Positions 5,462 to 60,465 of a stretch of DNA of 64,000 nucleotides are shown piece after piece. Below the pieces are notes generated by a model that was not told the DNA's origin, ran no database searches, and was given only the letters and a program-made list of their open reading frames with translations. A program made the translations under genes and the position numbers. The number at the start of each line of letters is the position of its first letter. The stretch's first letter is position 1. Source of the stretch: Candidatus Omnitrophota bacterium (GTDB lineage: Bacteria > Omnitrophota > Gorgyraeia > Gygaellales > Profunditerraquicolaceae); the NCBI GenBank assembly GCA_028712255.1, contig JAQTQJ010000001.1, positions 12,366 to 76,365 on the forward strand, read 5' to 3'.

Positions 5462-5543
5462 GTGTCATTGCGAGTCCGCCGAAGGCGGACGAAGCAATCT
5501 AATAAAAGATTGCTTCGTCGCTGTCGCTCCTCGCAATGACACC
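5462..5543. repeat. interspersed nested-palindrome element, full copy (GTGTCATTGCGAG-TCCGCCgaagGCGGAC-GAAGCAATCT aataaa AGATTGCTTC-...-CTCGCAATGACAC)
   Basis: seen in sequence; same termini recur at 12 or more other loci in this window. Confidence 0.85.
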
Positions 5544-9399: not shown

Positions 9400-9474
9400 G
9401 TGTCATTGCGAGCCCGAAGGGCGAAGCAATCTTTTAAAGGATTGCTTCGTCGCTGTCGCTCCTCGCAATGACAC
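9400..9474. repeat. nested-palindrome element, full copy (loop ttttaaagg)
   Basis: gtgtcattgcgagcccgaagggcgaagcaatcttttaaaggattgcttcgtcgctgtcgctcctcgcaatgacac. Confidence 0.85.
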
Positions 9475-9977: not shown

Positions 9978-10040
9978 AGTGTCATTGCGAGGAGTCCGAC
10001 AACGTTTCAGTGGCGGACGACGAAGCAATCTAATAAAGTC
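9978..10040. repeat. nested-palindrome element, left half only
   Basis: gtgtcattgcgaggagtccgacaacgtttcagtggcggacgacgaagcaatctaataaa. Confidence 0.8.
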
Positions 10041-10049
10041 AGTATAGGA

Positions 10050-10082
10050 GGGACCGTCCCACAAGGGACTGTCCCTTTTTTA
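10050..10082 (+). terminator. rho-independent terminator GGGACCGTCCC-acaa-GGGACTGTCCC + T-run (variant of the GGGGACGG hairpin family)
   Basis: perfect 11-bp stem followed by TTTTTTATTTT, downstream of nrdR. Confidence 0.75.
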
Positions 10083-10085
10083 TTT

Positions 10086-10126
10086 TGTTAGATTTTACCA
10101 CTTCCTTCGTCTATTGTAGTAGCAAG
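10086..10126 (+). promoter_or_regulatory. conserved motif TGTTAGAT-N14-CGTCTATTGTAGTAG (copy 1 of 4)
   Basis: near-identical 40-nt sequence also at approx. 17774, 31040, 51276, always upstream of a small regulatory gene. Confidence 0.5.
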
Positions 10127-12768: not shown

Positions 12769-12832
12769 TCGTCATTCTGAGGGAGTCCGCCAACGTTCTG
12801 TGGCGGACGACGAAGCAATCTTTTTGGAACAT
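12769..12832. repeat. nested-palindrome element, left-half variant (GTCATTCTGAGG...GACGAAGCAATCT)
   Basis: cgtcgtcattctgagggagtccgccaacgttctgtggcggacgacgaagcaatct. Confidence 0.75.
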
Positions 12833-17610: not shown

Positions 17611-17753
17611 AGATTGCTTCGTCGTCCGCCACAGGGCGTTGGCGGACTCCTCGCAATGACACAGGAGGATGGCGGACTTAGAATGACGGAAGAACAGGTG
17701 GCTCAGAATGACGGGGGGATGTATACATAATCAGTTGTGAGCTTAGAATGACT
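17611..17753. repeat. nested-palindrome element right half followed by degenerate tandem GAATGAC units
   Basis: agattgcttcgtcgtccgccacagggcgttggcggactcctcgcaatgacac ... ttagaatgacgg ... ctcagaatgacgg ... cttagaatgactg. Confidence 0.75.
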
Positions 17754-17773
17754 GAAGATATATAGAAATTTTC

Positions 17774-17813
17774 TGTTAGATTTTGCCTTTTCTTGCGTCA
17801 GTTGTAGTAAGAG
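17774..17813 (+). promoter_or_regulatory. conserved motif TGTTAGAT-N14-CGTCAGTTGTAGTAAG (copy 2 of 4), upstream of bro-N gene
   Basis: seen in sequence. Confidence 0.5.
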
Positions 17814-20782: not shown

Positions 20783-20879
20783 AAGATTGCTTCATCGCTT
20801 CGCTCCTCGCAATGACACCGGCTACTTTTCGCAAGGACACGGCTACCTCGTAATGACACAGTTACTTTGTAATGACACG
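20783..20879. repeat. nested-palindrome element right half plus three degenerate AATGACAC units
   Basis: aagattgcttcatcgcttcgctcctcgcaatgacac ... cgcaaggacac ... cgtaatgacac ... gtaatgacac. Confidence 0.75.
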
Positions 20880-21307: not shown

Positions 21308-21343
21308 TAAATGGAACCGCTCTCTTTGCCATACCTGATAAAT

Positions 21344-21404
21344 AAAGGGGACAGTTCTATTTTTGGTTGAAAGAAAAATGAGAAAAACAGAACCGTCCCC
21401 TTTA
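21344..21404 (+). terminator. long hairpin AAAGGGGACAGTTCTATTTTT ... AAAAACAGAACCGTCCCCTTT (GGGGACGG hairpin family)
   Basis: seen in sequence between BFN gene and cca. Confidence 0.7.
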
Positions 21405-21409
21405 TTTCT

Positions 21410-22855
21410 ATGCTTCAATTTAGCCTAAAAGAAAAAAATATTTTAAAGCCGATTTATAATTTTGCCAAATTAAAAAAGGTGAAATTATATTTAGTCGGCG
21501 GAGTCTTGCGTGATTTAATCTTAAAGAGAAAAAAAGAAAATCCTGATTTTGATTTTTGTTTGAAAAAGGGAGCCTTAAATTTTGGCCGGCTTTTGTCTAA
21601 GCAGCTCAGGGCTGCTTATGTAGTTTTGGATGCTGAGCATGGGGCTTGCCGCCTTGTAAAGAGGATAGATGGTAAACTTTACACCTTTGACTTTACGGAT
21701 TTCCGCGCGCCAATTCTGGAAAAAGATCTTTTGCACCGGGATTTTACGATTAATGCTATGGCTCTTACGCTGAGCGATGTTTTCTCAGACAAAGATTTAA
21801 ATGCATTGATTATTGATCCGTATTTTGGAAGAAGTGACCTTGAGCGTAAAATAATTAAGGTTGTTGGCCTAAGTTCATTTAAAGAGGATCCTTTAAGGAT
21901 CCTACGCGCGTTTAGTTTTAGCTGCATGCTTGGGTTTAGTTTGGATAAAGAGACCTTACGCCTGGCAAAAAAAGAAAAAAGCAGGATCATCGCGGTGTCC
22001 AGCGAACGTATTCGTGATGAGTTGTTTAAGATTTTTGATAGTGTCACAACTTATGATTCTTTAGTTATTTTGGATAAGCTAAAGATTTTAGAGATACTAT
22101 TCCCGGAAATAAAGCCGATGCGCCATATCGGGCAGGGGCCTTATCATCATCTGGATGTCTGGCAGCATACTTTAGAAACATTAAAGCAGTTTGAATTGAT
22201 TTTAAAATTAGTTAAACATAATCCGCAGATAAATAATTATCTTGAGCAGGAGGTTTCTAGCTTTCATAAAAGATCAAGCCTTCTAAAGTTAGTTTGTATA
22301 TTGCATGATGTGGGTAAGCCTGCTGCTTTACGCCGGGAAAAAGGGAAAATTATTTTTCACGGCCATGAGAGGGTAGGTTTAGGGCTGACCAGAGTAATCT
22401 GGCGCAGGCTAAAATTATCTAATGAGGAGGGCCGCTCTTTAGAGAAGATTGTGCTCTGGCATTTACGCCCCGGATATCTGGCAGATTACCAAAACCCTAC
22501 TCAGCGGGCAATCTTTCGTTATTTTCGTGATACAGGTAATGAGGCATTGTCTGTGCTTTTGTTATCGTTGGCTGACCAGCGCGCCACTAAAGGCCCGCTG
22601 GCTACCGCACTTTCGCGTGTACGGCATGAAAAATTAGTTAAGTTGTTAATTCATAAGTTGCTAAAAAAACAAAGCGAGAAGAAAGTTATTCGCCTGATTA
22701 ACGGCAATGATATTATGAATAAATTTAAGTTGAAGGCATCTCCATTAATAGGCACAGTTCTTGAAGCGTTGGAAGAGGCTCAGGCGCTTGGTAAGATTAA
22801 GAATAAAAAAGAGGCTTTGGAGTTAGCCGCTAAAATAATTAAGAAAGAACAATGA
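21410..22855 (+). CDS. cca: CCA-adding tRNA nucleotidyltransferase / poly(A) polymerase family with HD domain
   Basis: LVGGVLRDLIL head domain, HD motif (LHDVGK), 481 aa. Confidence 0.8.
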   Translation: MLQFSLKEKNILKPIYNFAKLKKVKLYLVGGVLRDLILKRKKENPDFDFCLKKGALNFGRLLSKQLRAAYVVLDAEHGACRLVKRIDGKLYTFDFTDFRAPILEKDLLHRDFTINAMALTLSDVFSDKDLNALIIDPYFGRSDLERKIIKVVGLSSFKEDPLRILRAFSFSCMLGFSLDKETLRLAKKEKSRIIAVSSERIRDELFKIFDSVTTYDSLVILDKLKILEILFPEIKPMRHIGQGPYHHLDVWQHTLETLKQFELILKLVKHNPQINNYLEQEVSSFHKRSSLLKLVCILHDVGKPAALRREKGKIIFHGHERVGLGLTRVIWRRLKLSNEEGRSLEKIVLWHLRPGYLADYQNPTQRAIFRYFRDTGNEALSVLLLSLADQRATKGPLATALSRVRHEKLVKLLIHKLLKKQSEKKVIRLINGNDIMNKFKLKASPLIGTVLEALEEAQALGKIKNKKEALELAAKIIKKEQ

Positions 22856-25833: not shown

Positions 25834-26826
25834 ATGAAAATAAAAAATACAGAAATTAAGGTAGTAATGAGTGATATTACTGAAATAAAGGCTGATGCTA
25901 TTGTTAATGCCGCTAATAATGAATTGGTGATGGGAGGGGGAGTTGCCGGGGCAATTAGGCGCAAGGGTGGTAAAATTATCGAAGATGAGGCAGTAAAAAA
26001 AGGCCCGATTAAAATTGGAGAGGCAGTTGCTACCGGCGCAGGAAAATTGCCAGCAAAATATGTAATTCACGCTGCTACGATGGGGATAGGTTTTTCCCGC
26101 CAATCAAATAAATCATCAGGCGGGATCCCGCCTGAGCTTTGTAAGAGCTGGGCGGGAAAGACGGATGAGATTAAAATTCGTGATGCTTGTAGGAGCTCAT
26201 TAAACTTGGTTAGTGAATTAAAGATTGGTTCAATTGTTTTTCCGGCTTTAGGTTGTGGTACAGGAGGATTTCCATTGCTTGCTTCAGCTAAAATTATGGC
26301 TCAGGAGGTTTTAAAGCACCTGCGTCAGCAGGAGTCGCCCCTTAAAGAAGTAATTTTTTGTCTGAATAATCAGGAGGCTGTTACTATTTTTAATAAAGGC
26401 GTATTGGGCTATCTGGAATATGTAACGACTAAATTGTCCGGTGGGCCTTATGTTACCGTGGATGCGATTATTGAATTACCCGAAGGAATTGTAATTATTC
26501 AGCGTAGTAATCCGCCTTTTGGCTGGGCGCTGCCAGGAGGTTTTGTAGATTACGGCGAGAGCTTAGAAGATGCGGTAATAAGAGAGGCAAAAGAAGAGAC
26601 TAATCTTGATTTGACCGAGGTTAAACAGTTTCATACCTATTCTGCTCCTAACCGTGACCCCAGATTCCATACAGCCGGAACAGTATTTATTGCCAAAGCT
26701 AAAGGAATCCCTAGAGCCGGAGATGATGCCGCAGGCTTAAAAGTTATTAAATTAAATGAAATAGAGAAGATGCAATTTGCTTTTGACCATAAAAAGATTC
26801 TTCAGGATTATCTAAATTCAAAATAA
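25834..26826 (+). CDS. Macro domain (MacroD/YmdB-type) fused to NUDIX hydrolase
   Basis: N-term [23 protein letters not shown] macro signature; C-term Nudix box [24 protein letters not shown]. Confidence 0.75.
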
Positions 26827-26827
26827 A

Positions 26828-26890
26828 AGGGACCGTTTCTGTTTTTCTACCTTTTAAGTTTAGAAAAACAGAAACGGTCCCTTTTATTTT
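26828..26890. terminator. bidirectional terminator: perfect 25-bp hairpin AAAAGGGACCGTTTCTGTTTTTCTA / TAGAAAAACAGAAACGGTCCCTTTT
   Basis: seen in sequence between convergent genes, flanked by T-runs on both strands. Confidence 0.85.
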
Positions 26891-29904: not shown

Positions 29905-29975
29905 TAAATAAGCCTTAGCTTTAAGTGGTAAGCTATAAGCCGTAAGCTTACAACTTATAACTTACAGCTTATAAT
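29905..29975. repeat. TAAGCT/CTTA-rich heptad-periodic repeat (AGCTTAC AACTTAT AACTTAC AGCTTAT) upstream of aroC
   Basis: seen in sequence; 27/32 identical to block upstream of clpP. Confidence 0.6.
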
Positions 29976-30004: not shown

Positions 30005-31045
30005 ATGTTAAGGTGTTTAACTGCAGGTGAATCACATGGAAAAGGGATAGTTGCTATTTTAGAAGGATTTCCGGCTGGATTTCAGGTGGATCTTGCTGCG
30101 ATAAATAAAGAATTAAAACGCAGGCAAGCAGGATTTGGCCGTGGCAAGCGTATGCAGATAGAGAGTGACTGGGCCGAGATCGTCTCTGGCTTAAAAAATA
30201 ATTTTACCCTGGGTAGCCCAATTACCCTGTTAATTAAGAATAAAGATGCTAGTATTGAAAAGTTGCATAAAATTCTGGCTGCTCGTCCAGGACATGCGGA
30301 TTTAGCCGGGTTATTGAAATATGGTTTTACGGATATCCGGGAAGTATTGGAACGTGCTTCGGCGCGCAGCACGGTAGCGACGGTGGCAATAGGAGCAATA
30401 TGTAAGGGGCTGCTTAAGGAGTTTGGAATTGTTCTTACCAGTAATGTTTTGTCGGTGGGAGGAGAATTTACCAAAAATGGCATAGAGGCTAAAATAGCCG
30501 AGGCGATTAGTAATAAAGATACAGTCGGTGGGATTTTTGAGGTAGTTGCTAAAAATGTACCGGTTGGTCTTGGCAGCTATGTGCAGGCTGATCGCAGGCT
30601 GGATAGCCGGCTGGCCGCAGGAATTATGGCTATTCCGGGAATTAAATCCTTTGAAGTAGGGTTAGGATTAGGATATGCGGTTAGTTTTGGTTCAGAAGTG
30701 CATGATGCGATTTATTTTAATAATAAAAAAGGCTATTTTCGCTCGACTAATAATGCAGGCGGTATTGAAGGCGGGATATCTAACGGCCAGGAGATTGTTT
30801 TACGCGCCTGCATGAAGCCGATCTCTACACTCATGAAACCGCTTGATTCGGTGAATATCCAAAGTAAAAAATCTGCTAAGGCTGCGGTTGAGCGTTCAGA
30901 TACATGCGTAGTTGAATCTGCCGGTATTGTGGCTGAATCTGCGACTGCCTTTGTTTTAGCTGAGGCATTCTTAGAAAAGTTCGGCTCTGATTGTTTAAGA
31001 GACATAAAAGAAAGCTATAAAAATTATTTAAAAAGAATCTGTTAG
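30005..31045 (+). CDS. aroC: chorismate synthase
   Basis: AGESHG start, RSSARET-like and GGISNG motifs. Confidence 0.9.
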   Translation: MLRCLTAGESHGKGIVAILEGFPAGFQVDLAAINKELKRRQAGFGRGKRMQIESDWAEIVSGLKNNFTLGSPITLLIKNKDASIEKLHKILAARPGHADLAGLLKYGFTDIREVLERASARSTVATVAIGAICKGLLKEFGIVLTSNVLSVGGEFTKNGIEAKIAEAISNKDTVGGIFEVVAKNVPVGLGSYVQADRRLDSRLAAGIMAIPGIKSFEVGLGLGYAVSFGSEVHDAIYFNNKKGYFRSTNNAGGIEGGISNGQEIVLRACMKPISTLMKPLDSVNIQSKKSAKAAVERSDTCVVESAGIVAESATAFVLAEAFLEKFGSDCLRDIKESYKNYLKRIC

Positions 31046-31080
31046 ATTTTATCAACTCCTTCGTCTATTGTTGTAAGAAG
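31040..31080 (+). promoter_or_regulatory. conserved motif TGTTAGAT-N14-CGTCTATTGTTGTAAG (copy 3 of 4), begins at aroC stop codon, upstream of spoVG
   Basis: seen in sequence. Confidence 0.5.
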
Positions 31081-31094
31081 GGGGTGATTAGAGG

Positions 31095-31352
31095 ATGGAA
31101 GAGAACGCAATCAGCGTCAGCCGCATATACAAGCTGGATACCGATTCCAAGCTTAAAGCTTTTGCGGATGTAACATTTTCGGGAGTTGTGATCAAAGGTT
31201 TTAGTGTGGTAAACGGCGAAAAAGGGTTATTTGTGAGTATGCCGCGCCATCAAGGCAAAGATGGGAAATGGTATAACACAGTTTATCCTTCGACCAAAGA
31301 ACTAAAGCAACAGTTAAGTGAAGTTGTCCTGGAAGCGTATAAAGGCAGCTAA
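31095..31352 (+). CDS. spoVG: SpoVG family protein
   Basis: 85 aa; VSRIYKLDTDSKLKAFADVTF...GLFVSMP matches SpoVG. Confidence 0.75.
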   Translation: MEENAISVSRIYKLDTDSKLKAFADVTFSGVVIKGFSVVNGEKGLFVSMPRHQGKDGKWYNTVYPSTKELKQQLSEVVLEAYKGS

Positions 31353-31356
31353 AATT

Positions 31357-31410
31357 AGGGGACGGTTCTATTTTTCTAGAACTGTACCGAGAAAAATAGA
31401 ACCGTCCCCT
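31357..31410 (+). terminator. perfect 21-bp hairpin AGGGGACGGTTCTATTTTTCT / AGAAAAATAGAACCGTCCCCT
   Basis: seen in sequence after spoVG. Confidence 0.8.
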
Positions 31411-31420
31411 AGATTTAAAA

Positions 31421-35168: not shown

Positions 35169-35551
35169 GTGTCATTGCGAGGATGCGCCGTAGGCGCAGA
35201 CGAAGCAATCTTTTAAAGGATGCTAACCAAGCAGTACTACGTTTATTTTTTAACGAATTGGGATCATAAAGTTATCTATGTTGGCGTAACAGACGATTTA
35301 AAGCGCAGGATTTATGAGCATAAGAATGGATTAATTGATGGATTCACATGGAAATATCATGTGCATAAATTGGTCCATTATGAGATATGCGAAGAGATCC
35401 AGGGAGCTATTTTAAGAGAAAAACAAATCAAGGGCGGTTCTCGGCAGAAGAAAGTTGGACTGATTAACAAATTTAATCCTGAGTGGGATGATTTGTGGAG
35501 TAAGTTATAAAAAGATTGCTTCGTCCGCCTTCGGCGGACTCGCAATGACAC
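35169..35551 (+). mobile_element. composite element: nested-palindrome left half (35169-35219) + GIY-YIG nuclease gene (35220-35510) + right half (35511-35551)
   Basis: gene occupies exactly the loop position of the 80-bp repeat; start ATG is fused to the TTTTAAAGG loop and stop TAA abuts AAAGATTGCTTCG. Confidence 0.65.
35220..35510 (+). CDS. small GIY-YIG nuclease (UPF0213/YhbQ-like)
   Basis: YYVYFL...IYVGVTDDLKRRIYEH GIY-(10)-YVG motif, 96 aa. Confidence 0.75.
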   Translation: MLTKQYYVYFLTNWDHKVIYVGVTDDLKRRIYEHKNGLIDGFTWKYHVHKLVHYEICEEIQGAILREKQIKGGSRQKKVGLINKFNPEWDDLWSKL

Positions 35552-38420: not shown

Positions 38421-38503
38421 GTGTCATTGCGAGGAGCGATAGCGACGAAGCAATCTAAAAAAAGATTGCTTCCCCTTCGCTTCGCTCAGGGTCGCAATGA
38501 CAC
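38421..38503. repeat. nested-palindrome element, full copy
   Basis: gtgtcattgcgaggagcgatagcgacgaagcaatctaaaaaaagattgcttccccttcgcttcgctcagggtcgcaatgacac. Confidence 0.85.
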
Positions 38504-41798: not shown

Positions 41799-43719
41799 GG
41801 TTTTGAGTTTTTTTACCTCTTTCATACCCCTAGATTTTAGCCTTTTTTTAGGCAGGAGGCTGGGGGATCTTATTTATCTATTCGATAGGCGGCATCGGGT
41901 AATTGCCTACGCTAATATCAGAAAGACTGTTGCAGATAAACTTGATTGCGCATCTAGCGCAAGGATTACACGCAGGGCTTATCAGGCATTTGGACAGAAT
42001 CTTATTGAAATTTCTTTTATCCCGCGCATAAATAAGCGGTATCTTAAAAAATATATTCAGATTGAAAATGAGGATTGTATACAGAAGGCTTTTAATAGAG
42101 GTAAAGGTGTAATTTTCCTCATTGTGCATGAGGGTAACTGGGAGTTATCCAATATTATTTGCGCGAATTTAGGTTTTCCTTTTCTTCTGTTTGTGCGTGA
42201 TCAGGGTTTCCCGAAATTAAATGCCCTACTTAACTCTTACCGGCTTAAACAGGGAGCGATGATTATCCATAAAGAAGGTGGCCTGCGTCAGCTGGTTGAG
42301 GCGTTAAAGAGTAACCAGGCAATTGGGATGACCGTGGATCAGGGTGGTAAGAGCGGAGAGATTGTTAAATTTTTCGGTAAAGAAGCTTCCATGTCGGTTG
42401 GCGCGGTAAAGTTAGCAATAAAATTCGATTGTTCAATAATTCCAGTTTTTTATACACGCATTAAGGGCCCATATACCAAAGTAATTCTGGACCAAGTTTA
42501 TACAGCAACTAGAACTAATAATCCTGAAAGTGATTTAAGGGAAAATTTACAAAGATTAATTAACGTTTACGAAGGGTATATCCGTAAATATCCTCATGAA
42601 TACCTCTGGACTTATAAAATCTGGAAGTATGGTTTGGAAAGAGAAATCTTGATTCTTTCTGACGGAAAGACCGGGCATCTGCGCCAATCGCAAGGTTTAG
42701 CTAAATTAATTGGGCAACAGTTGGCTAACCGCGGCATAAAATATAATTTATCTATTCAGGAGGTAAAATTCCACTCAAGGCTATCTGAATTTATATTTAA
42801 TTGGGCACCTGTGGTTTGCATCCGTTGCCTGTATCATGTTTTAACTAATGAGAGCTGGCAGAGTTTGGTGAGTTTTAATCCAGATATAATAATTTCTGCC
42901 GGAGGATCAATTTCCCGGGTCAATTATCTTCTGGTAAAAGAAAATTATGCCAAATCCATTGTTTTGATGCGCCCAACCAATATATCTTTAAAGAAATTTA
43001 ATCTAGTAATTATACCTGAACATGATTGGCCACAAGGCCATGGTTTGGCCTCCTTTGGCCAAAGCCACAGGCCGGTTAAAAGGGAGAATGTGGTATCTAC
43101 TGAAGGCGCGCTTAATTTAATCGATTCAGATTACTTAAAAGAAAAATCTATTAGCCTAGAGCAGTCTAATCTTTTAAAAGTCCGTTTGTCCACTCCATGT
43201 ATTGGAGTTTTAATCGGAGGAAATACTAAGAAGTTTTCTATTGATACACATGATATAATAGAATTATCTGGTCAAGTCAAAAAAGTATCCGAAGAATTAA
43301 ATGCAGATATACTTATTTCTACTTCCAGGCGTACCAGTGTTGCAGTAGAGCGGGTTTTGAAGGATGAGTTCAGCACTTATACGCGTTGTAAGCTTTTGGT
43401 TATTGCCAATGAAAGTAATAACCCTGATGTTGTTGGCGCAATACTGGGATTAAGCAATATAATTATCTGTTCGCCGGAAAGTATCTCGATGATTTCTGAA
43501 GCTGTCTGCGCAGAAAAGTACGTCGTAGTATTTAAGGGGCGCGGCCTTAGCAAAAAACATGAATGTTTTTTAAAGAACTATCAGGATAAAGGATATATAT
43601 ATTTAAATAAAACAAATGATTTAGCAGACGGCATTAAAGAAATATGGCTAAATAAACCCAAGATAAATATTCCTCAGGATAATTTAAAGGTAGCTGAGGC
43701 GTTGAATAAAATACTATGA
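41752..43719 (+). CDS. lipid A late acyltransferase (LpxL/HtrB family) fused to a GT-B-like domain (ELM1/DUF1022-like or LpxB-like)
   Basis: N-term HEGNWE acyltransferase motif; C-term begins ILILSDGKTGHLRQSQGLAKLI; cannot discriminate ELM1 vs LpxB by eye. Confidence 0.55.
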   Translation: MKQNLIADYLSCILFRVLSFFTSFIPLDFSLFLGRRLGDLIYLFDRRHRVIAYANIRKTVADKLDCASSARITRRAYQAFGQNLIEISFIPRINKRYLKKYIQIENEDCIQKAFNRGKGVIFLIVHEGNWELSNIICANLGFPFLLFVRDQGFPKLNALLNSYRLKQGAMIIHKEGGLRQLVEALKSNQAIGMTVDQGGKSGEIVKFFGKEASMSVGAVKLAIKFDCSIIPVFYTRIKGPYTKVILDQVYTATRTNNPESDLRENLQRLINVYEGYIRKYPHEYLWTYKIWKYGLEREILILSDGKTGHLRQSQGLAKLIGQQLANRGIKYNLSIQEVKFHSRLSEFIFNWAPVVCIRCLYHVLTNESWQSLVSFNPDIIISAGGSISRVNYLLVKENYAKSIVLMRPTNISLKKFNLVIIPEHDWPQGHGLASFGQSHRPVKRENVVSTEGALNLIDSDYLKEKSISLEQSNLLKVRLSTPCIGVLIGGNTKKFSIDTHDIIELSGQVKKVSEELNADILISTSRRTSVAVERVLKDEFSTYTRCKLLVIANESNNPDVVGAILGLSNIIICSPESISMISEAVCAEKYVVVFKGRGLSKKHECFLKNYQDKGYIYLNKTNDLADGIKEIWLNKPKINIPQDNLKVAEALNKIL

Positions 43720-45809
43720 AAATACTGCAAATATTACCTGAGCTTAGTGTAGGGGGAGTTGAAACTGGTACATTAGATCTCTCCAAATATTTGGTGCGCC
43801 TGGGGCATAAGTCAGTAGTTGTTTCTGCCGGCGGTTCCTTAGTTAAAGAGTTGGAAACTGCCGGCGGTAAACATTATACGCTGGCAGTAAATAAAAAATC
43901 CATTATCTCAATTTTTAAATTAATTCCGGTATTGGCAGAAATAATTAAAAAAGAAGAGATTGATATCGTGCATGCCCGCTCTAGGGTCCCTGCTTGGATT
44001 GCCTATTTTGCCTGTCGAAAGACTAAAGCGGTATTTATTACTACCTGTCACGGTTATTACAAAAAACATTTTTTTAGCTCGGTAATGGGCTGGGCAAAAA
44101 GGGTGATTGTTTTAAGTAATGTGATTGCCAGGCATATGATTGAAGATTTCTCTGTGCCGCATGAGCGCATTAGGCTTGTGCCGCGCAGTGTGGATTTGGA
44201 AAGATTCAAATATCTTGATCCTAAAGCAAAAAGGAAAGAAGATTTTAATGTCGCAATAATTGGCAGGATTACTCCTTTAAAAGGGCATCTGCATTTTATT
44301 AAGGCTATGGCGCGAATTTCTAGGTTTTTACCGCGGCTCAAGATTTGGATTGTAGGTGATGCTCCTGCATCCAAGGAGGCGTATAAAGAAGAGGTTCAGG
44401 TTTTGGTGCGACGCTTAGGGCTTTGGCATTGCACGGAATTTCTGGGTACGCAACGGGATATTCCCGGAATACTCGCCCATTTAGATTTGGTGGTTTTAGC
44501 CACAACAACTCATGAGGCTTTTGGAAGAGTGGTTGTTGAGGCGATGGCTGCCGGGGTTCCGGTAGTTGCTACTAAAGTCGGTGGTGTAGTCGATATTATT
44601 GAAGACGGCAAAAACGGCCTCTTAGTACCTCCGGCAGATTCTAAAAGCATGGCAGATGCTGTAATGCGTATTTTTAAGGATGTGGAATTAGCTGTTCAGC
44701 TGGCAGAGAATGCTTACTTAAAAGTTAAAGAGAAATATAACGTAGAATTGATGGTTAAGAATACGCTGGATGTTTATCGCGACGCAATAAGTAATTTTAA
44801 AATACTGATTATCAAATTTAGTTCTTTAGGGGATATAATTCTGACTACGGCGGCATTAAGGGCAATCCGGGAGAAATTCAATAAAGAAAATTTTAAAATA
44901 AGTTTTTTGACTTCCGAAGGATCCAAGGATATTCTTTTGAGAAGCCCTTATATTGATGAGTTATTGGTTTGCGATTTGAAAAATAAGGATAAAGGTGTAA
45001 CTGGTTTATTGGGAGTTGGGAAAATTTTAAGAAATAAGAATTTTGATATCGTTATTGATTTGCAGAATAGCCGTAGAAGCCACCTGTTGGCTTATTTAAG
45101 CGGTTGTATTAATCGTTATGGTTATAGTAATAAGAAGTTTGCTTTTTTACTTAATCATACTGTTGAAAACCAGAAGTCTCCAATTGACCCGGTAACTCAT
45201 CAGTTTCGAATCTTAAAGATGCTCGGGATTGACCTTTTGGATAACCGCCTGGAAATTTGGCCTTCTGGCGAAGACGTAAAAGCAGTAGATGAACTTTTGA
45301 ATGCTCAATGGTTGAGCCAGGCTCAGAAGATTGTAGGAATTAATCTTAGCGCATCCAGAAGATGGATCACCAAACGTTGGCCGCTGGAGCATTTGATTCG
45401 TTTGTGTGAAGAACTGGAATTAAAAGATATTCGGGTAATTGTTACTGGTACTCAAGATGATTTGCCTTTTGCGAATATGCTTTTTAGTTCTTTGAAGAAT
45501 ACCAAGATTATTAATGCCTGCGGTAAAACTACTATAAATGAGTTGGCGGCCTTGATTAAGAAGTGCCAGGTATTTATATCTGTAGATTCTTTTCCTTTGC
45601 ACATTGCTTCTGCAGTTGGCACTGCATTTATTGCTTTATTCGGGCCAACTGACCATCACCGGCATCTGCCGCCTGGTAAAGATTATACTGTGATTAACAA
45701 AGGCTTAAATTGCAGTCCCTGTTACAAAACTAAATGCCGCTCTAAGCGTTGTATGATTGCAATCAGTCCTGATGAAGTATTGGAAGCAGTGGAGAAGTTA
45801 TTAAAATAA
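43716..45809 (+). CDS. glycosyltransferase family 4 fused to family 9 (heptosyltransferase-like) domain
   Basis: N-term ILPELSVGGVETGTLDL (GT4) ... C-term FKILIIKFSSLGDIILTTAALRAI (GT9). Confidence 0.65.
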   Translation: MKILQILPELSVGGVETGTLDLSKYLVRLGHKSVVVSAGGSLVKELETAGGKHYTLAVNKKSIISIFKLIPVLAEIIKKEEIDIVHARSRVPAWIAYFACRKTKAVFITTCHGYYKKHFFSSVMGWAKRVIVLSNVIARHMIEDFSVPHERIRLVPRSVDLERFKYLDPKAKRKEDFNVAIIGRITPLKGHLHFIKAMARISRFLPRLKIWIVGDAPASKEAYKEEVQVLVRRLGLWHCTEFLGTQRDIPGILAHLDLVVLATTTHEAFGRVVVEAMAAGVPVVATKVGGVVDIIEDGKNGLLVPPADSKSMADAVMRIFKDVELAVQLAENAYLKVKEKYNVELMVKNTLDVYRDAISNFKILIIKFSSLGDIILTTAALRAIREKFNKENFKISFLTSEGSKDILLRSPYIDELLVCDLKNKDKGVTGLLGVGKILRNKNFDIVIDLQNSRRSHLLAYLSGCINRYGYSNKKFAFLLNHTVENQKSPIDPVTHQFRILKMLGIDLLDNRLEIWPSGEDVKAVDELLNAQWLSQAQKIVGINLSASRRWITKRWPLEHLIRLCEELELKDIRVIVTGTQDDLPFANMLFSSLKNTKIINACGKTTINELAALIKKCQVFISVDSFPLHIASAVGTAFIALFGPTDHHRHLPPGKDYTVINKGLNCSPCYKTKCRSKRCMIAISPDEVLEAVEKLLK

Positions 45810-46970: not shown

Positions 46971-47743
46971 AAAAATTAATTGTTGTTTTTTTCTTGGCAA
47001 TTACCGTAGCCTTTCTTATCTGGCTGCGTGGCCAGTATATATTGCCGATCGTGATGTATCATTCGGTTACTCCGGAGGCTAGAGTGGAGAATCGCCTCCA
47101 GGTCTCCGATACTTTATTTAAACGCCAAATGGAATTTTTAAAAAGCCATCATTACAATGTGGTTTCATTGGAGGATGCAGGCAGGATGATTAAGGAACAC
47201 GGGAAAGTTCCTGCTAAAACCATTGCCATAACTTTTGATGATGGTTACGAGGATAATTACATCTACGCCTATCCGGTTTTAAAAAAACTTAAGATTCCGG
47301 CGACAATATTTGTTATTGTTAATCGAATTAAGGTGGGCCCTGGTAAGGATATTTTAAGTTGGGATCAGATTAAGGAAATGCAAGCATCCGGTTTGATTAC
47401 TTTTGGTAGCCATACTTTAGACCATGCATATTTGCCCGAAGTTAAATCTGAGGAAGAATTGAGAAGGCAGATATTTGAGTCTAAAAAAACACTTGAGGAA
47501 AAGTTAGGCGTTCCGATTAATACTTTCTGTTATCCGGCGGGTAGATTTGACGCGCATGTAAGAGATTTAGTCGCTCAGGCAGGATATAAATTGGCGGTTG
47601 CTACTGGCCTTGGTAAGAGGTTTTCTAATCAGGATGTGTATTTAATTAAAAGAGTACGTATTTCTGAAACGGATAATCTTTTTGATTTTTGGGTAAAAAC
47701 CAGCGGTTATTATAATTCATTTCGTAACCATAATACTAGATGA
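46958..47743 (+). CDS. polysaccharide deacetylase (CE4)
   Basis: ITFDDGYEDNY and HTLDH motifs. Confidence 0.75.
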   Translation: MSKIKKLIVVFFLAITVAFLIWLRGQYILPIVMYHSVTPEARVENRLQVSDTLFKRQMEFLKSHHYNVVSLEDAGRMIKEHGKVPAKTIAITFDDGYEDNYIYAYPVLKKLKIPATIFVIVNRIKVGPGKDILSWDQIKEMQASGLITFGSHTLDHAYLPEVKSEEELRRQIFESKKTLEEKLGVPINTFCYPAGRFDAHVRDLVAQAGYKLAVATGLGKRFSNQDVYLIKRVRISETDNLFDFWVKTSGYYNSFRNHNTR

Positions 47744-48777
47744 ATAAAAAGCATTCTGAAAAACGTATCCTAATTTTTAATGTTAATTGGCTTGGAGATG
47801 TTTTGTTTTCCAGTGCCGCGATCAGGAATATTCGCAGGAACTATCCGCAAGCCTACCTTGCCTGTATAATCCCCAGCCGTTGTTATCAGATACTAAAAGA
47901 TAATCCTTATTTAGATGAGGTAATCATTTTTGATGAGAGGGATAGGCATAAAGGGGTGATTTCTAAGCTTAGTTTTATTAGCCTGCTTAAAAGCAAAAAA
48001 TTTGATACTGTATTTTTATTGCATCGATCATTTACGCGCGCCCTTATTTGCCGGCTTGCCGGAATTCCTGAGAGGATTGGGCATTATACGAAGAAGCGTT
48101 CTTTTCTTCTGACTAAAAAAATCATTCCACCCAAAAGAGATTCACTGCACCGCATAGATTATTATCTGGATGTGATTGAAAAAGCGGGCCTGCGGATTGA
48201 AGACAGATACCTGGATTTCTTCTTTACATCTTTAGATGAGGAGTATGTTGAGAATTTTTTAAATAAAAATTCTATTGGTAAAAGTGATTTTTTAGTAGCA
48301 ATAAACCCCGGAGGCAACTGGCTGCCTAAGCGCTGGCCCGTCGATTATTGGGCGCAGCTAGCCGATAAATTAATCAATGAATTGGGTTTAAGAGTAATAA
48401 TCACCGGTAGCGCTGCTGATTCAAAGTTAGCACTTCAAATTAAAGAAAGAATGAAGGAACTCCCATTAATTGTTTGTGGGGCTTTCAATATCAAGCAGCT
48501 CGGCGTACTGGCAAAAAGGGCAGATTTGTTCATTACTGCCGATACTGGTCCAATGCATATTGCCAATGCCGTAGGGTGCAAAAATATAATTGCAATTTTT
48601 GGGCCAACATCCAAAGAAGTTACTGGGCCGTATCCTGCTAATAATGTCGTTATACTGCAAAAGGATGCAGGTTGTCCTATACCGTGTTATAAGCTAAATT
48701 GTCAGGACAGGCGTTGTATGAAGGCGGTCACTCCCAGTGATGTTTTGGCAGAAGTTAAGAAAATAAGAAAGCTATGA
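47740..48777 (+). CDS. glycosyltransferase family 9 (ADP-heptose:LPS heptosyltransferase-like)
   Basis: RILIFNVNWLGDVLFSSAAIRNI and GPMHIANAVG motifs. Confidence 0.75.
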   Translation: MNKKHSEKRILIFNVNWLGDVLFSSAAIRNIRRNYPQAYLACIIPSRCYQILKDNPYLDEVIIFDERDRHKGVISKLSFISLLKSKKFDTVFLLHRSFTRALICRLAGIPERIGHYTKKRSFLLTKKIIPPKRDSLHRIDYYLDVIEKAGLRIEDRYLDFFFTSLDEEYVENFLNKNSIGKSDFLVAINPGGNWLPKRWPVDYWAQLADKLINELGLRVIITGSAADSKLALQIKERMKELPLIVCGAFNIKQLGVLAKRADLFITADTGPMHIANAVGCKNIIAIFGPTSKEVTGPYPANNVVILQKDAGCPIPCYKLNCQDRRCMKAVTPSDVLAEVKKIRKL

Positions 48778-50861
48778 AAATACTTTTTATAACTTTAAGT
48801 AATATTGGAGATTGTGTTTTGACCCTGCCGGTTTTAGACGCCTTGCGCCAGGAGTATCCGCAGTCTAGGATTACCTGCCTTGTACCTGAGCGCCCTAAAG
48901 AGATCTTTATTAATAATCCTGTAATTGAGAATGTTGTTATTTTTGATAAACATGCCAAATTAATCGATAAGATTAAGTTATTTATTTCTTTAAGCAAGGA
49001 GAAATTTGATTTAGTTATCGATATGCGTAATAGTTTTTTTGGAGTTTTTCTACCTGCTAAAAAAAAGAGTACGCCTTTACGTATAATTCCTTCTAGGATT
49101 AAACATATGAAGGACAGGCATCTTTTTTGGGCGGGTTTTACCGATTATTCTTATAAGAATAAAGATTACCAATCATTGGTTATTACTCCTGGAGATTTTG
49201 ATTATGTCGATAATATCTTTAATGGGCAGGGACTAGCTAAAAGTGAAAAATTGATTGTAGTTGCGCCTGGTTCTAGAAGCCAGGTTAAATGCTGGGATAA
49301 GCATAATTTTAGCCAACTTTGTAACCAGCTTAAAAAAGAGGGCAAGGATATAGTTTTAGTTGGAGACAAAGGCGATCAATCTATATGTTCATATGTGCAA
49401 CAAAATTCTTCTCCTGGAATTTTTAACCTTTGTGCAAGGACAACGCTAGGGCAACTTGGCGCTTTGTTAAAAAAATCCCAGCTTTTAATTACCAATGATA
49501 GCGCAGTGATGCATTTGGCAAGTTATTTGAATGTTCCTGTTGCTGCTATCTTTGGGCCGACGGATGAAAAGAAATATGGGCCTTGGTCGCAGAAGAGCAT
49601 AGTTATAAAGAAGGATATCTTCTGTCGTCCCTGTGAAAAAGCGCAATGCCATTTTGGTACACTGGCTTGTTTGAGTTGTATAAAGCCGCTAGATGTGTTA
49701 AAGCAGATTAAATCCTTATTGTGTCATTGCGAGGAGTCCGCCATTGGTTCAGTGGCGGACGACGCCTGCCCGCCAACGGTTCAGTGGCGGGAAGCAATCT
49801 TTGCAACTAAAAGATTAAAGGAAAAAAGTAAACAATACCGCAGGATTCTTATTGCACGCACTGATCGTATCGGGGACGTGCTTTTATCTACGCCGGTAAT
49901 CTATGCTTTGAGGAAAAAATTTCCACAGGCATATATTTCTATGATGGTTGCCCCTTATGCTTTGGATATTATAGAAGGTAACCCTTATCTGGATGAGGTT
50001 ATTATTTATGATAAAGACCAAAAACATAAGAGTTGGTGGCGTTCTTTTAAATTTTCTAATAGGCTTAAGAAGAAAAAATTTGATTTGGCAATTATTTTAC
50101 ATCCGACAAACCGGCTACATTTAATAACTTTTTTAGCCGGAATTCCGCATCGACTGGGTTATGATTGTAAACTTGGTTTTTTGCTTAATCTGCGCAAAAT
50201 TCATACAAAGCAGGAGGGTTTGCGGCATGAGGCAGAATATAATTTGGATTTAATTTCTGAATTAGGTATAGCCGGTAATCCAGAAGATTTATTTATGCCC
50301 ATTAAAAAGGAATCAGAGCAATATGTCGAGGAGCTGTTTAGAAAAGAAGGTATTAGTAAGACAGATAAAATATTAGCGATTAATCCTGGAGCAAGCTGCC
50401 CTTCAAAGATTTGGCCACATGAGCGTTTTGCGCAAGTTGCCGAAAAGCTATCTAAACGATATGATTTTAAAATTCTGATTCTAGCCGGGCCAAAAGAAAT
50501 GTATTTAGCAGATAAGATTGCCCATGAAATTAAAGATAAGGTGGTAAATCTGGCAGGGAGGACTTCAATAAGCCAGTTAGCCAGCATCCTTAAAAGGTGC
50601 ACCCTATTTATTTCTAATGATTCCGGTCCGGTGCATATCGCTTGCGCCTTAGGCACGCCGGTTATCTCAATTTTTGGCCGTAATCAAGCAGGCCTTAGCC
50701 CGCGGCGCTGGGGGCCTTTGGGCAAACATGGGAAATATCTGCACAAGGATGTAGGCTGTATTCAGTGCCTGGCGCATAATTGTAAAAAAGAATTCACCTG
50801 CCTTAAGGCAATCAGCGTTGATGATGTAGTCTGTGCCGCTGAATCGATTTTAAATAGGTAG
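48774..50861 (+). CDS. tandem double GT9 heptosyltransferase-like protein with a nested-palindrome repeat copy in the linker
   Basis: two complete GT9 units (ILFITLSNIGDCVLTLP... and ILIARTDRIGDVLLSTP...) joined in frame across the repeat at 49720-49800. Confidence 0.6.
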   Translation: MKILFITLSNIGDCVLTLPVLDALRQEYPQSRITCLVPERPKEIFINNPVIENVVIFDKHAKLIDKIKLFISLSKEKFDLVIDMRNSFFGVFLPAKKKSTPLRIIPSRIKHMKDRHLFWAGFTDYSYKNKDYQSLVITPGDFDYVDNIFNGQGLAKSEKLIVVAPGSRSQVKCWDKHNFSQLCNQLKKEGKDIVLVGDKGDQSICSYVQQNSSPGIFNLCARTTLGQLGALLKKSQLLITNDSAVMHLASYLNVPVAAIFGPTDEKKYGPWSQKSIVIKKDIFCRPCEKAQCHFGTLACLSCIKPLDVLKQIKSLLCHCEESAIGSVADDACPPTVQWREAIFATKRLKEKSKQYRRILIARTDRIGDVLLSTPVIYALRKKFPQAYISMMVAPYALDIIEGNPYLDEVIIYDKDQKHKSWWRSFKFSNRLKKKKFDLAIILHPTNRLHLITFLAGIPHRLGYDCKLGFLLNLRKIHTKQEGLRHEAEYNLDLISELGIAGNPEDLFMPIKKESEQYVEELFRKEGISKTDKILAINPGASCPSKIWPHERFAQVAEKLSKRYDFKILILAGPKEMYLADKIAHEIKDKVVNLAGRTSISQLASILKRCTLFISNDSGPVHIACALGTPVISIFGRNQAGLSPRRWGPLGKHGKYLHKDVGCIQCLAHNCKKEFTCLKAISVDDVVCAAESILNR
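49720..49800. repeat. nested-palindrome element, left half with duplicated GC hairpin, inside CDS
   Basis: gtgtcattgcgaggagtccgccattggttcagtggcggacgacgcctgcccgccaacggttcagtggcgggaagcaatct. Confidence 0.8.
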
Positions 50862-50900
50862 TTACCAACAGCGCCTTGTTTTTTAGCTAGTAGTTGTTTC

Positions 50901-51224
50901 ATGGGTGGAGAAGTTTATAGGGTTTTAGTGGGGGCGAATATGAACGTTAAGAAAATCATAGCTAGAGAGGGTTTGATTCTATTGGGAATCGTAGTCTTGG
51001 GACTGATTGTGTATTTTATAAGTAGGCACTTAAATGACATTTATTTGAGGGGACATTGGGAGGCTAAATTTAAAGTTATAAAAAATATGAAATATTCCTT
51101 GATAGGTTATACCCCATATATAAGAATGATGTCTTTGGGTTTAAATATAGCTGTATTTGGTTATCCTGTTGTTGCTCTTATCCGTTTTATCCTCTGGTCG
51201 GCAAGGATATTAAGGGAAAAATAA
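50901..51224 (+). CDS. small hypothetical membrane protein
   Basis: two predicted TM helices, 107 aa. Confidence 0.3.
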   Translation: MGGEVYRVLVGANMNVKKIIAREGLILLGIVVLGLIVYFISRHLNDIYLRGHWEAKFKVIKNMKYSLIGYTPYIRMMSLGLNIAVFGYPVVALIRFILWSARILREK

Positions 51225-51245
51225 GATTAAAAACGAAAGAAATAA

Positions 51246-51266
51246 AAGGGGACGGTTCTATTTTTA
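51246..51266. repeat. solo half-copy of GGGGACGG hairpin family (AGGGGACGGTTCTATTTTT without partner arm)
   Basis: 19/19 identical to left arm of hairpin at 31357. Confidence 0.6.
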
Positions 51267-51275
51267 GTAAAATTA

Positions 51276-51316
51276 TTGTTAGATCTTGTTACCTCCTACG
51301 TCTATTGCAACAGGAG
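51276..51316 (+). promoter_or_regulatory. conserved motif TGTTAGAT-N14-CGTCTATTGCAACAGGAGG (copy 4 of 4), upstream of ORF6N gene
   Basis: seen in sequence; contains ACCTCCT...AGGAGGT inverted repeat overlapping the RBS. Confidence 0.5.
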
Positions 51317-51323
51317 GTAAAAG

Positions 51324-51839
51324 ATGAAAATTATTATTCCGGATGAAGTAATTGAGCAAAAGATATTCTTGATACGTGGACACAAAGTTATGTTGAGTAA
51401 TCATCTTGCTCAGCTTTACGGAGTTAGTACTAGCGCATTGACGCAGGCAGTTAGGCGTAATATTGAAAGATTCCCTGAAGATTTTATGTTTTTATTGAAG
51501 CGGGAAGAAATTATGAACTTATCACAATTTGTGATAAGTTCTAAACTAAAACATGCTCCTAATGTTTATGCTTTTACTGAACAAGGAGTGGCAATGCTCT
51601 CAAGCGTTTTACGTAGTAAAAAGGCTATACATGTCAATATCGCCATTATGCGGGCATTTGTGAAACTACGTCAGATTCTATCTTCGCATAAGGAATTAAT
51701 ACATAAATTAGAAGAGTTGGAGCAAAGAATTGGAAAGCATGATGCAGCAATAAAGGATATTTTTGGAGTGATCCGTCAACTAATGGAACCGCCTAGTCTA
51801 AAAGAAAAAGTAATAGAAGGTTTTCGTGCTCCAAAGTAG
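51324..51839 (+). CDS. ORF6N domain protein (phage antirepressor/KilA-N-related)
   Basis: IIPDEVIEQKIFLIRGHKVMLSNHLAQLYGVSTSALTQAVRRNIERFPEDFMF is the characteristic ORF6N N-terminus. Confidence 0.6.
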   Translation: MKIIIPDEVIEQKIFLIRGHKVMLSNHLAQLYGVSTSALTQAVRRNIERFPEDFMFLLKREEIMNLSQFVISSKLKHAPNVYAFTEQGVAMLSSVLRSKKAIHVNIAIMRAFVKLRQILSSHKELIHKLEELEQRIGKHDAAIKDIFGVIRQLMEPPSLKEKVIEGFRAPK

Positions 51840-51901
51840 GATTTCAAATAAGCTTTTGAAAGTGTCAAGAAGGATCACTTAGGGATAAAAGATAGAATAC
51901 T

Positions 51902-52378
51902 TTATGGTGTGTGTTTTTGAAGACCCGCTATCCCTATTAGTATAGCGATAATACCAAGAGCTACTGGTATAAAAAATAATAGAAATTTAAAATGGGAGCG
52001 CATAGTTTTTACTTCGGTATCGTTATCTTTAATTATGTTTTCTAACCCTGAAATCTTTTTATTGAGTTCATTAATTTCTTTAAGGGCGTTATCTCTTTCT
52101 ATAGTAATTTGAGTATTGTTTGGATGTGTATGGAGATAATTAAGTATTTTTGTTATTGTTTCACTCAAGCTAATTATACCTTTTCCATAAATCTCAAATC
52201 CGTCAATTATCCAATTAAAGAATCCTAATAACCCCCAAATTACTACTATGGTAGAAGACGTAAATACAGATGCTAATAAAAACAACCTCAACGAGGAGTA
52301 CATGGGGATAATTGTAATTACAATCCAAATGATTACTAGAATAATAAAAATTATTGGTTTCGGTGGTTTTATTTTCAT
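51902..52378 (-). CDS. hypothetical membrane protein (2 N-terminal TM helices, coiled coil, C-terminal TM helix)
   Basis: 158 aa on opposite strand to all neighbours. Confidence 0.35.
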   Translation of the reverse strand: MKIKPPKPIIFIILVIIWIVITIIPMYSSLRLFLLASVFTSSTIVVIWGLLGFFNWIIDGFEIYGKGIISLSETITKILNYLHTHPNNTQITIERDNALKEINELNKKISGLENIIKDNDTEVKTMRSHFKFLLFFIPVALGIIAILIGIAGLQKHTP

Positions 52379-52494
52379 TCCTTAATTATACTCTTAAAAA
52401 ATGATTATACCAAGGAAAAAAGTTGGTATATTTTTGATATTGTGAAACAGATGAGAAGATGGAATAAATAGGAATGTTTTTTATTCTAACGGAT

Positions 52495-52644
52495 GGCGAG
52501 CCTTGGTTTCTGGCAGCATCTCAAAAATTCGAGCGGGCACGGTTGCCCGCAATAAATGTCCCGGCAGAGCGAGAATTTTTGCCGAAGCGAAGATTTTCCA
52601 CGCTGGGGAAAATCGAGCGGTGCGGCCAGAAACCAAGGCTCGAC
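52495..52644. other. GC-rich structured element: 20-bp terminal inverted repeat GGCGAGCCTTGGTTTCTGGC / GCCAGAAACCAAGGCTCGAC enclosing three internal hairpins; candidate ncRNA or MITE
   Basis: seen in sequence; internal hairpins GCGGGCAcggtTGCCCGC and GATTTTCCacgctggGGAAAATC; GC content far above local average. Confidence 0.4.
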
Positions 52645-52711
52645 AGGACCCGCGTAAGCATCATAAATATCTATTTGATTTAGCGCTAAATTATGATAAA
52701 ATCATTTCTCT

Positions 52712-60410: not shown

Positions 60411-60465
60411 AGATTAGCTGTAAGTTATAAGCTTTAAGCTTATAACTTAAGACTTATGGCTTATT
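60411..60465. repeat. CTTA heptad-periodic repeat (AGCTTAT AACTTAA GACTTAT GGCTTAT) upstream of clpP
   Basis: 27/32 identical to block at 29940-29972 upstream of aroC. Confidence 0.6.

Follow-up and report, generated by a model that had tools for sequence, protein, structure and literature searches.

A palindromic repeat lying in frame in the linker of a two-module GT9 protein of Omnitrophota

The 64,000-nucleotide stretch of DNA analyzed here, referred to below as the window, comes from the 212-kb contig JAQTQJ010000001.1 of a Candidatus Omnitrophota bacterium and contains, on the plus strand at positions 48774 to 50861, a single open reading frame (ORF) that starts with ATG and encodes a 695-residue protein with two modules of the GT9 (heptosyltransferase) family. 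An 80-nucleotide copy of a palindromic repeat lies between the two modules at positions 49721 to 49800, in frame and free of stop codons. Module 1 (residues 1 to 315; positions 48774 to 49718, plus strand) ends in a C-terminal helix (residues 305 to 317 in a structural model), and module 2 (residues 356 to 695; positions 49839 to 50858, plus strand) has no start codon of its own. Pfam PF01075 (Glyco_transf_9) matched the ORF twice, in two stretches, with a score of 254.6 bits against a gathering cut-off of 22 (E = 1e-75). When the halves were submitted separately to TIGR02195, the equivalog profile of lipopolysaccharide (LPS) heptosyltransferase II with a curated cut-off of 134.6 bits, module 2 (residues 356 to 695) scored 172.5 bits and covered positions 1 to 338 of 339, and module 1 (residues 1 to 316) scored 129.0 bits with a match extending to the C-terminal end of the profile. 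The modules aligned with each other over their full length (28% identity; E = 1e-39), and module 2 matched the solved structures PDB 3TOV (E = 6e-43) and PDB 1PSW (E = 2e-40). The two complete GT9 units that a first-pass annotation had read in this ORF from the letters alone are thereby borne out, and the protein is in all probability a genuine, bifunctional-looking enzyme made of two ADP-heptose:LPS heptosyltransferase-like GT-B modules and a short linker whose sequence appears unconstrained.

The repeat copy opens with the L-box GTGTCATTGCGAG (positions 49721 to 49733, plus strand), translated (L)CHCE, followed by the GC-rich hairpin segment GAGTCCGCCATTGGTTCAGTGGCGGACGAC (49734 to 49763), whose subfamily is shared by the intergenic copies at 9979, 12770, and 17662 (minus strand). 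Positions 49764 to 49790 hold a 27-nucleotide (9-codon) near-duplicate of the hairpin that no other copy of the family has, the two hairpins (49738 to 49758 and 49770 to 49790) being 90% identical. The R-box GAAGCAATCT (49791 to 49800), translated EAI(F), closes the unit, and the loop TTGCAACTAA together with the initial bases (AAGATT) of a right arm that is truncated extends from 49801 to 49816. The canonical unit is 51 nucleotides long (17 codons), from GTCATT to AATCT, to which the linker copy adds the extra 27 nucleotides (9 codons). The copy reads CHCEESAIGSVADDACPPTVQWREAIF as residues 317 to 343, and the predicted tryptic peptide across the junction would be SLLCHCEESAIGSVADDACPPTVQWR. 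Its membership in the repeat family of the window was shown by the 20-mer GTCATTGCGAGGAGTCCGCC, which has four matches with at most three mismatches in the window against 0.01 expected, by 24 nucleotides at its left end that are identical to the intergenic copy at 17640 to 17663, and by 91% identity over 44 nucleotides to the intergenic copy at 9979 to 10022. The ORF is continuous through the repeat, as first described. The designation of this copy as a left half was correct as to the family and incorrect as to the half, since it is one complete single unit of a family in which single units and inverted dimers both occur. Between position 49801 and the conserved block RRILIARTDRIGD, the sequence contains no in-frame ATG, GTG, or TTG, in agreement with the first reading; the only in-frame TTG (49719) and GTG (49752) codons are at or inside the repeat, neither with a Shine-Dalgarno sequence.

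Units of this family, designated family A, consist of the L-box GTGTCATTGCGAG or GTCATTGCGAG, a variable short GC hairpin, and the R-box GACGAAGCAATCT or GAAGCAATCT, for an overall length of 33 to 53 nucleotides. Thirteen such units were found in the window. Eleven of the 12 loci are intergenic and sit between plus-strand ORFs, the copy at 49721 to 49800 being alone inside a real coding sequence. The family occurs as single units in either orientation or as inverted dimers with a 6- to 8-nucleotide A/T loop, the dimers ending in 13-nucleotide terminal inverted repeats (GTGTCATTGCGAG and CTCGCAATGACAC). Intergenic dimers are located at 5462 to 5542 (a full palindrome, used as the reference copy), 9400 to 9474, and 38421 to 38503. 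The intergenic single units that share the hairpin subfamily of the linker copy measure 52 to 53 nucleotides including a leading GT and lie at 9979 to 10031 (plus), 12770 to 12821 (plus), and 17611 to 17662 (minus); other intergenic single units lie at 20784 to 20818 (minus), 35169 to 35211 (plus), and 35513 to 35551 (minus). Because 34 of the 39 sense frames of single family-A units contain no stop codon, such units are easily translated. The tetranucleotide GACG (CGTC on the other strand) adjoins the hairpin in 10 of the 13 units, in an internal position, followed by the conserved R-box, rather than at the terminus.

No target-site duplication was detected, as neither the linker copy nor the intergenic copies have direct repeats at their flanks. 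A parent insertion sequence (IS) with the same termini was not noticed in the window, in which no systematic IS search was made, and tblastn found no homologue of Y1_Tnp (RAYT) in the 64 kb. A scan of the whole window with Rfam at gathering thresholds matched no family, and a full-text search of the literature for the box sequences returned unrelated primer matches only. Many unrelated contigs from metagenomes carry the same two boxes (22 of the first 120 pattern matches), indicating that family A is widespread; as far as could be found, it has not been described in the literature. A second palindromic family, family B, has the boxes AAAGGGGACGGTTC...GAACCGTCCCCTTT and occurs just 3′ of genes in the window, with copies at 21340 to 21411, 26820 to 26890, 31350 to 31417, and 51245 to 51265. 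At one locus of another species (L005), an IS200-like Y1 transposase gene (L005:5092-5760; Pfam E = 1.6e-5) follows the orthologous GT9-GT9 gene directly downstream and sits inside a split family-B palindrome, the flanking half-sites belonging to family B and not to family A. The coding sequence of this transposase carries an in-frame GC hairpin (GGGGCAACCACGAGGGTTGCCCC), and the same hairpin is found again just upstream of the gene.

Homologues were collected from 5.8 billion proteins, which gave 850 matches, and the best 120 homologue clusters were examined (proteins are designated P and DNA loci L below). All of these best 120 were double-length proteins from metagenome-assembled genomes (MAGs) of Omnitrophota, with 57 to 81% identity to the window protein, mostly 668 to 675 residues, and 100% coverage in nearly all cases. 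In an alignment of 26 homologues, both modules were highly conserved, all residues invariant in the family were kept in the window protein, and the linker was the sole region that varied strongly in length. The closest relative, P0002 (DNA locus L001; 81% identity; 672 residues), has a repeat-free core linker of 12 residues (...MLAGNVQGILTSEAKQYRRILI...) with neither a stop codon nor a methionine, versus the 35 residues of the window protein (...LLCHCEES...ATKRLKEKSKQYRRILI...), and its DNA is collinear with the window on either side of the linker. Proteins P0002 to P0006 (75 to 81% identity) all correspond to a fused ORF without the repeat.

In GTDB, this gene has at least 593 loci among Omnitrophota genomes, and a scan with one genome per species identified 80 of them. 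Both modules were in one stop-free frame at 72 of these, including that of the complete genome of Ca. Velamenicoccus archaeovorus, and one locus with an aberrant alignment (L092) was left unclassified. In the other seven, which belong to distant species (L067, L082, L083, L084, L087, L088, and L091), the modules are encoded by two genes separated by a stop codon and a spacer of 15 to 147 nucleotides, with an ATG directly before (K/R)ILI; several of these spacers are palindromic. Both genes are in the same reading frame in seven of seven cases, which is probably due to a ranking bias, since in-frame pairs give one long tblastn match. The existence of separate genes in seven distant species indicates that fusion or fission did happen within the phylum. 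No fused homologue has a methionine or a start codon at the beginning of module 2. The repeat-free linkers follow the common pattern A-[GD]-[NK]-x3-[IV]-[SP]-x-x-x-x-[KQ]-Q-Y, indicating that they represent the ancestral state. The possibility that they are decayed family-A copies was considered and rejected, because 67 short linkers matched the L- and R-boxes like shuffled controls (z from -1.4 to 0.1) and hold no trace of the boxes. On these comparative grounds, the GT9-GT9 fusion can be placed as ancestral to a large clade of Omnitrophota and as older than the repeat copy. A search of the literature on tandem GT9 proteins returned nothing relevant.

Classification of the linkers of 105 full-length homologues, with families assigned by peptide motif, revealed that 79 were repeat-free, with about 21 residues and the common pattern (for example, P0002, P0015, and P0086). 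Family-A peptides (CHCEE..., SHCEE...EAIS, VSLRANE.SEAI) were present in 10 by motif, of which 9 were convincing (the tenth, P0099, is probably a false positive), family-B peptides (AAAGGGGACGGTTC...GAACCGTCCCC; KGDGSLFQSIEHEKRTVPGIL) in 15, and both families in a single linker (P0100). About 24% of the homologues have a repeat-expanded linker, and peptides of the repeat type are confined to the linker zone of the protein. Carriers are scattered next to repeat-free relatives, as seen from the distances between P0018 and P0015 (0.09), P0071 and P0086 (0.10), P0012 and P0013 (0.10), P0007 and P0009 (0.12), and the window protein and P0002 (0.17), the carrier being named first in each pair; relatedness was estimated by the unweighted pair group method with arithmetic mean on pairwise distances, so that the tree topology is approximate only.

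The linker DNA was confirmed in seven loci, and the copies differ in form and position. The linker of L003 contains a full family-A palindrome in another frame and with other junctions, whereas in L004 and L008 a single unit is entered five codons later, with a different left junction and a different frame for the L-box. The reading frame differs among these linker copies, a point that the first-pass annotation had proposed to check. Family A precedes family B in L005, L006 carries family B, and the family-A copy of L007 is in decay. Species at a greater distance have linkers composed of short tandem DNA repeats; those of L033, L036, L038, and L039 are in frame, an example being GTCACAAAG present four times in L039. 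The same linker has been overwritten in frame by at least two palindromic families and by several tandem repeats, with recurring junctions, in about one-quarter of the lineages. Judged from the alleles compared, the linker is the sole site of repeats in the protein, recurring as such across species, and appears to behave like intergenic DNA whose sole constraints are that the frame be kept and stops be avoided. An insertion of 29 residues (LIHSAAFKNMPPQYQSLSKPQVLAQGVGG) was observed within GT9 module 1 of the homologue P0107 (columns 187 to 215 of alignment A1).

Against L001, the dN/dS ratio of the window gene was 0.105 in module 1 and 0.100 in module 2, which shows that both modules are under purifying selection and, with the invariant residues kept, functional. 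An AlphaFold2 model built from the 26-sequence alignment comprised two confident GT-B modules, with a mean predicted local distance difference test (pLDDT) score of 81.7. Residues 319 to 351, the repeat-encoded stretch, had pLDDT values below 50 and form a segment between the last helix of module 1 (residues 305 to 317) and the first strand of module 2 (residues 357 to 361). The repeat-encoded residues are thus predicted by the model to be disordered and to occupy a structurally permissive place. At the RNA level, the linker folds strongly (-47 kcal/mol; z = -5.0). A promoter and terminator scan of positions 49500 to 50000 found no terminator and one weak promoter-like site inside module 2, which does not exceed chance.

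These observations are best accounted for if one unit of an abundant palindromic repeat, similar to repetitive extragenic palindromes (REPs) and to miniature transposable elements with inverted repeats (MITEs), came to occupy a pre-existing linker, replacing about 9 old linker codons and making the protein 23 residues longer, and if the copy is translated as a disordered spacer between independently folding modules. We consider it probable that the repeat is an in-frame insertion or replacement in the old linker and that it is tolerated selfish DNA, most likely neutral. The copy would have arrived by transposition or by recombination or gene conversion from another copy, and would persist because its length is a multiple of three, because it is stop-free in the frame used, and because it lies between two modules that fold independently. 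The linker peptide is probably made, presumably without a function of its own. Several observations weigh against this interpretation. The event was not a simple insertion, since old linker codons are gone and no target-site duplication is present; the repeat-bearing alleles each replace 4 to 12 old codons, at junctions that recur. The segment after the R-box is closer to the linker copies of other species (81% identity to L004) than to those of its own genome, and the copy could consequently have a greater age or be a chimera. Some effect could also come from a stretch of mRNA that folds strongly midway through an ORF. Finally, the linker sequence rests on one MAG contig, and the protein cluster has one member.

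The first-pass annotation had offered two alternatives in which the two modules were, or still are, separate genes. According to one, the repeat landed on the spacer, removed the stop and start signals, and fused two heptosyltransferase genes in this lineage. The seven distant Omnitrophota species do have adjacent separate genes whose spacers are short and often palindromic, and the linker probably descends from an intergenic spacer and, like one, accumulates palindromic and tandem repeats. However, P0002 to P0006 and most of the clade have the fused ORF without a repeat, indicating that the fusion was not created by the repeat. Nor do repeat-free linkers show any excess likeness to the boxes of the repeat (z = 0.14 and -0.77). 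Comparison with orthologous loci that lack the repeat, L001 included, thus revealed continuous, fused genes where separate ones might have been expected. With a single ORF as the normal state of the clade (79 of 105 linkers being repeat-free and 72 of 80 GTDB species fused), a fusion made by the repeat is extremely improbable. According to the other, module 2 uses a noncanonical start. A broader version of this reading has two functional genes, with module 2 translated on its own, for example from ATT at 49845 or 49851, or with an mRNA that undergoes processing at the hairpins. An AGGA at 49842 to 49845 is followed by in-frame ATT codons, and the linker RNA folds strongly. Against this, no ATG, GTG, or TTG is on offer, the scan found no promoter or terminator signal in the linker, and in all seven species with truly separate genes a clear ATG stands immediately in front of (K/R)ILI. 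The ATT codons were rejected as the start of module 2 because repeat-free homologues, which also lack a start here, conserve the same in-frame junction (KQY-RRILI), and we regard the persistence of two functional genes as highly improbable. An assembly artefact is a further, very unlikely explanation, in which errors of the MAG assembler at the repeat would have joined or built the region wrongly, possibly including the duplicated hairpin. Short-read assemblies are error-prone at multicopy repeats, and the sequence is known from a single contig. Nonetheless, each flank is a syntenic half of one conserved gene, the stop-free length is divisible by three, and independent assemblies of other species have repeats at the same site.

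An alternative of some weight, although clearly not the one that we favor, is that the copy is no recent transposition but a long-resident allele exchanged between lineages by recombination, whose left part was homogenized by gene conversion with intergenic copies. The copy looks chimeric, its left two-thirds (L-box and hairpin) matching the subfamily of its own genome and its loop and tail matching the L004 and L008 linkers codon by codon (81%), and the segment at 49801 to 49816 resembles the L004 and L008 linker copies and metagenome palindromes, not the intergenic loops of the window. Junctions recur in distant lineages, every family-A copy in a linker has the sense orientation, old linker codons were replaced rather than added to, without a target-site duplication, and no family-A copy other than that of the linker is present in 8 to 23 kb of L004/L013, L005, L007, and L008. 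A shared 10-nucleotide loop was considered as proof of a single origin and found not to be decisive: the loop type, YARYTAA followed by AAGATTGC, also occurs in 22 family-A palindromes outside GT9 genes in unrelated metagenome contigs, so that common descent of the linker copies is not proven. Moreover, the full palindrome of L003, with its other frame and junctions, and the other left junction and frame of L004 and L008 mean that at least three separate events are needed anyway. It is also conceivable that the insert is functional, the linker having been tuned or lengthened, or the mRNA structure making ribosomes pause between modules or altering the stability of the transcript. The frequency of repeat-expanded linkers among homologues and the strong RNA fold are in line with such a role, and many REPs have been argued to act as RNA elements (Di Nocera et al., PMC3733652). 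This explanation is quite unlikely, however, since the inserted peptides are mutually unrelated (two palindromic families, several frames, and tandem repeats), decay is visible in L007, P0072, and P0073, most lineages, the closest relative included, have no insert, and the modeled confidence of the segment is low. A more far-reaching reading, which we hold to be unlikely, is that the linker is a preferred and not merely a permissive landing site, either because a translated former intergenic spacer is still recognized by the machinery that spreads intergenic palindromes or because its alleles are exchanged by recombination; on this reading, the translated hairpins might also tune the expression or folding of the two modules.

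The double GT9 gene sits within a cluster of LPS-core, Kdo, and Lpt genes whose order is that of L001, L004, and L010. Upstream are syntenic genes for a lipid-A acyltransferase-like protein, a GT4-GT9 protein, a GT4 protein, a deacetylase, and a GT9 protein, and downstream are those for DS-like, PfkB, KdsB, KdsA, KdsD, KdsC, LptC/A, and LptB proteins. The upstream GT9 gene (positions 47740 to 48777, plus strand; 345 residues) is separate and shares an ATGA overlap with the start of the double gene. A conserved GT4-GT9 fusion protein of 697 residues is encoded farther upstream (43716 to 45809). With this third GT9 gene and the GT4-GT9 fusion, the cluster is rich in fused glycosyltransferases. 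About 1.8 kb of the window (50862 to 52711), placed after the GT9-GT9 gene and before the DS-like/PfkB/Kds/Lpt genes, are missing in the closest relatives and comprise a small membrane-type ORF (50901 to 51224), a gene with an ORF6N domain (51324 to 51839), and a minus-strand membrane-type ORF (51902 to 52378). An ORF6N gene is found at the same position in L005 and L007. A conserved motif of about 45 to 54 nucleotides (TGTTAGAT...TTCGTCTATTG...AGG) is located directly upstream of several genes, ORF6N genes included (window positions 51274 to 51320, 10071 to 10124, 17759 to 17812, and 31025 to 31078; L005:5774-5815), and could be a shared leader or promoter. The window also contains an inverted pair of 51-nucleotide A/T-rich segments (29922 to 29972 and 60413 to 60463) built from short repeats resembling TAAGCT and ATAACTTA.

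Fusion of two genes by a repeat made an attractive story, which the comparison of homologues corrected. The comparative picture is the more useful result, since one 15-residue linker in an LPS-core enzyme appears to have been rewritten repeatedly and its 650 flanking residues never; the moderate interest of the case lies in the linker having been struck so often. The series of linkers offers natural material on how repeats move, on how far a linker tolerates arbitrary sequence, and on fusion and fission in relation to intergenic repeats. For annotation, CHCEE...EAIS and KGDGSLFQSIEHEKRTVPGIL peptides in Omnitrophota proteins should be regarded as translated repeats and not as motifs. Omnitrophota and the widespread family A (GTCATTGCGAG ... 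GAAGCAATCT) join a short list of in-frame selfish palindromes in genes of essential pathways.

Several known systems resemble the locus in part. Each module is a full-length GT9 GT-B fold like WaaF/RfaF and its relatives (PDB 1PSW and 3TOV), but the solved or characterized enzymes are single modules of ~320 to 350 residues, whereas two are present here on one chain and a third is encoded just upstream. The repeat shares with MITEs such as Correia elements of Neisseria and ERIC elements of enterobacteria a dimer that has 13-nucleotide terminal inverted repeats and folds as RNA, and which can be cotranscribed with, and translated within, neighboring genes; family A differs by the absence of a target-site duplication or an identified cognate IS and by single half-units that appear to be a stable form. 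With REPs, bacterial interspersed mosaic elements (BIMEs), and REPINs, family A has in common short GC hairpins, mostly intergenic between same-strand genes, as singles and inverted dimers (PMC3733652, PMC3116915), which now and then lie inside ORFs and encode 20 to 30 residues. The comparison made at the outset with REP/BIME or Correia-type elements tolerated inside coding sequences is supported, the repeat being a REP/BIME- or MITE-like element carried in frame. Unlike in REPs, the family-A hairpin is placed between the conserved boxes GTCATTGCGAG and GAAGCAATCT and does not simply bear a GTAG or CGTC tag at its end, and the window yielded no RAYT gene with family-A repeats on its flanks. 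The Rickettsia palindromic elements (RPEs; PMC10969869), which have been linked to CGTC-tagged REPs (PMC3733652), are typified by palindromic inserts that lie in frame in functional genes. Intragenic GTAG- and CGTC-tagged REPs have been catalogued in several phyla, and different REPs have been found inserted at about the same site of one gene, recB of Xanthomonas (PMC3733652). As in RPEs, a multicopy palindrome lies in frame and stop-free in a conserved functional gene that has no insert in related species, and the insert adds a peptide where the structure permits one. The differences concern the host phylum and the element, which are Omnitrophota and a different repeat, the unit size (51 to 80 nucleotides here versus about 100 to 150 bp in RPEs), and the proportion of intragenic copies, as 1 of the 12 loci of the window is intragenic whereas RPEs often are. 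Events of this kind are thus already known from RPEs and intragenic REPs; the addition made here is the recurrent use of one linker, struck repeatedly by two families across species.

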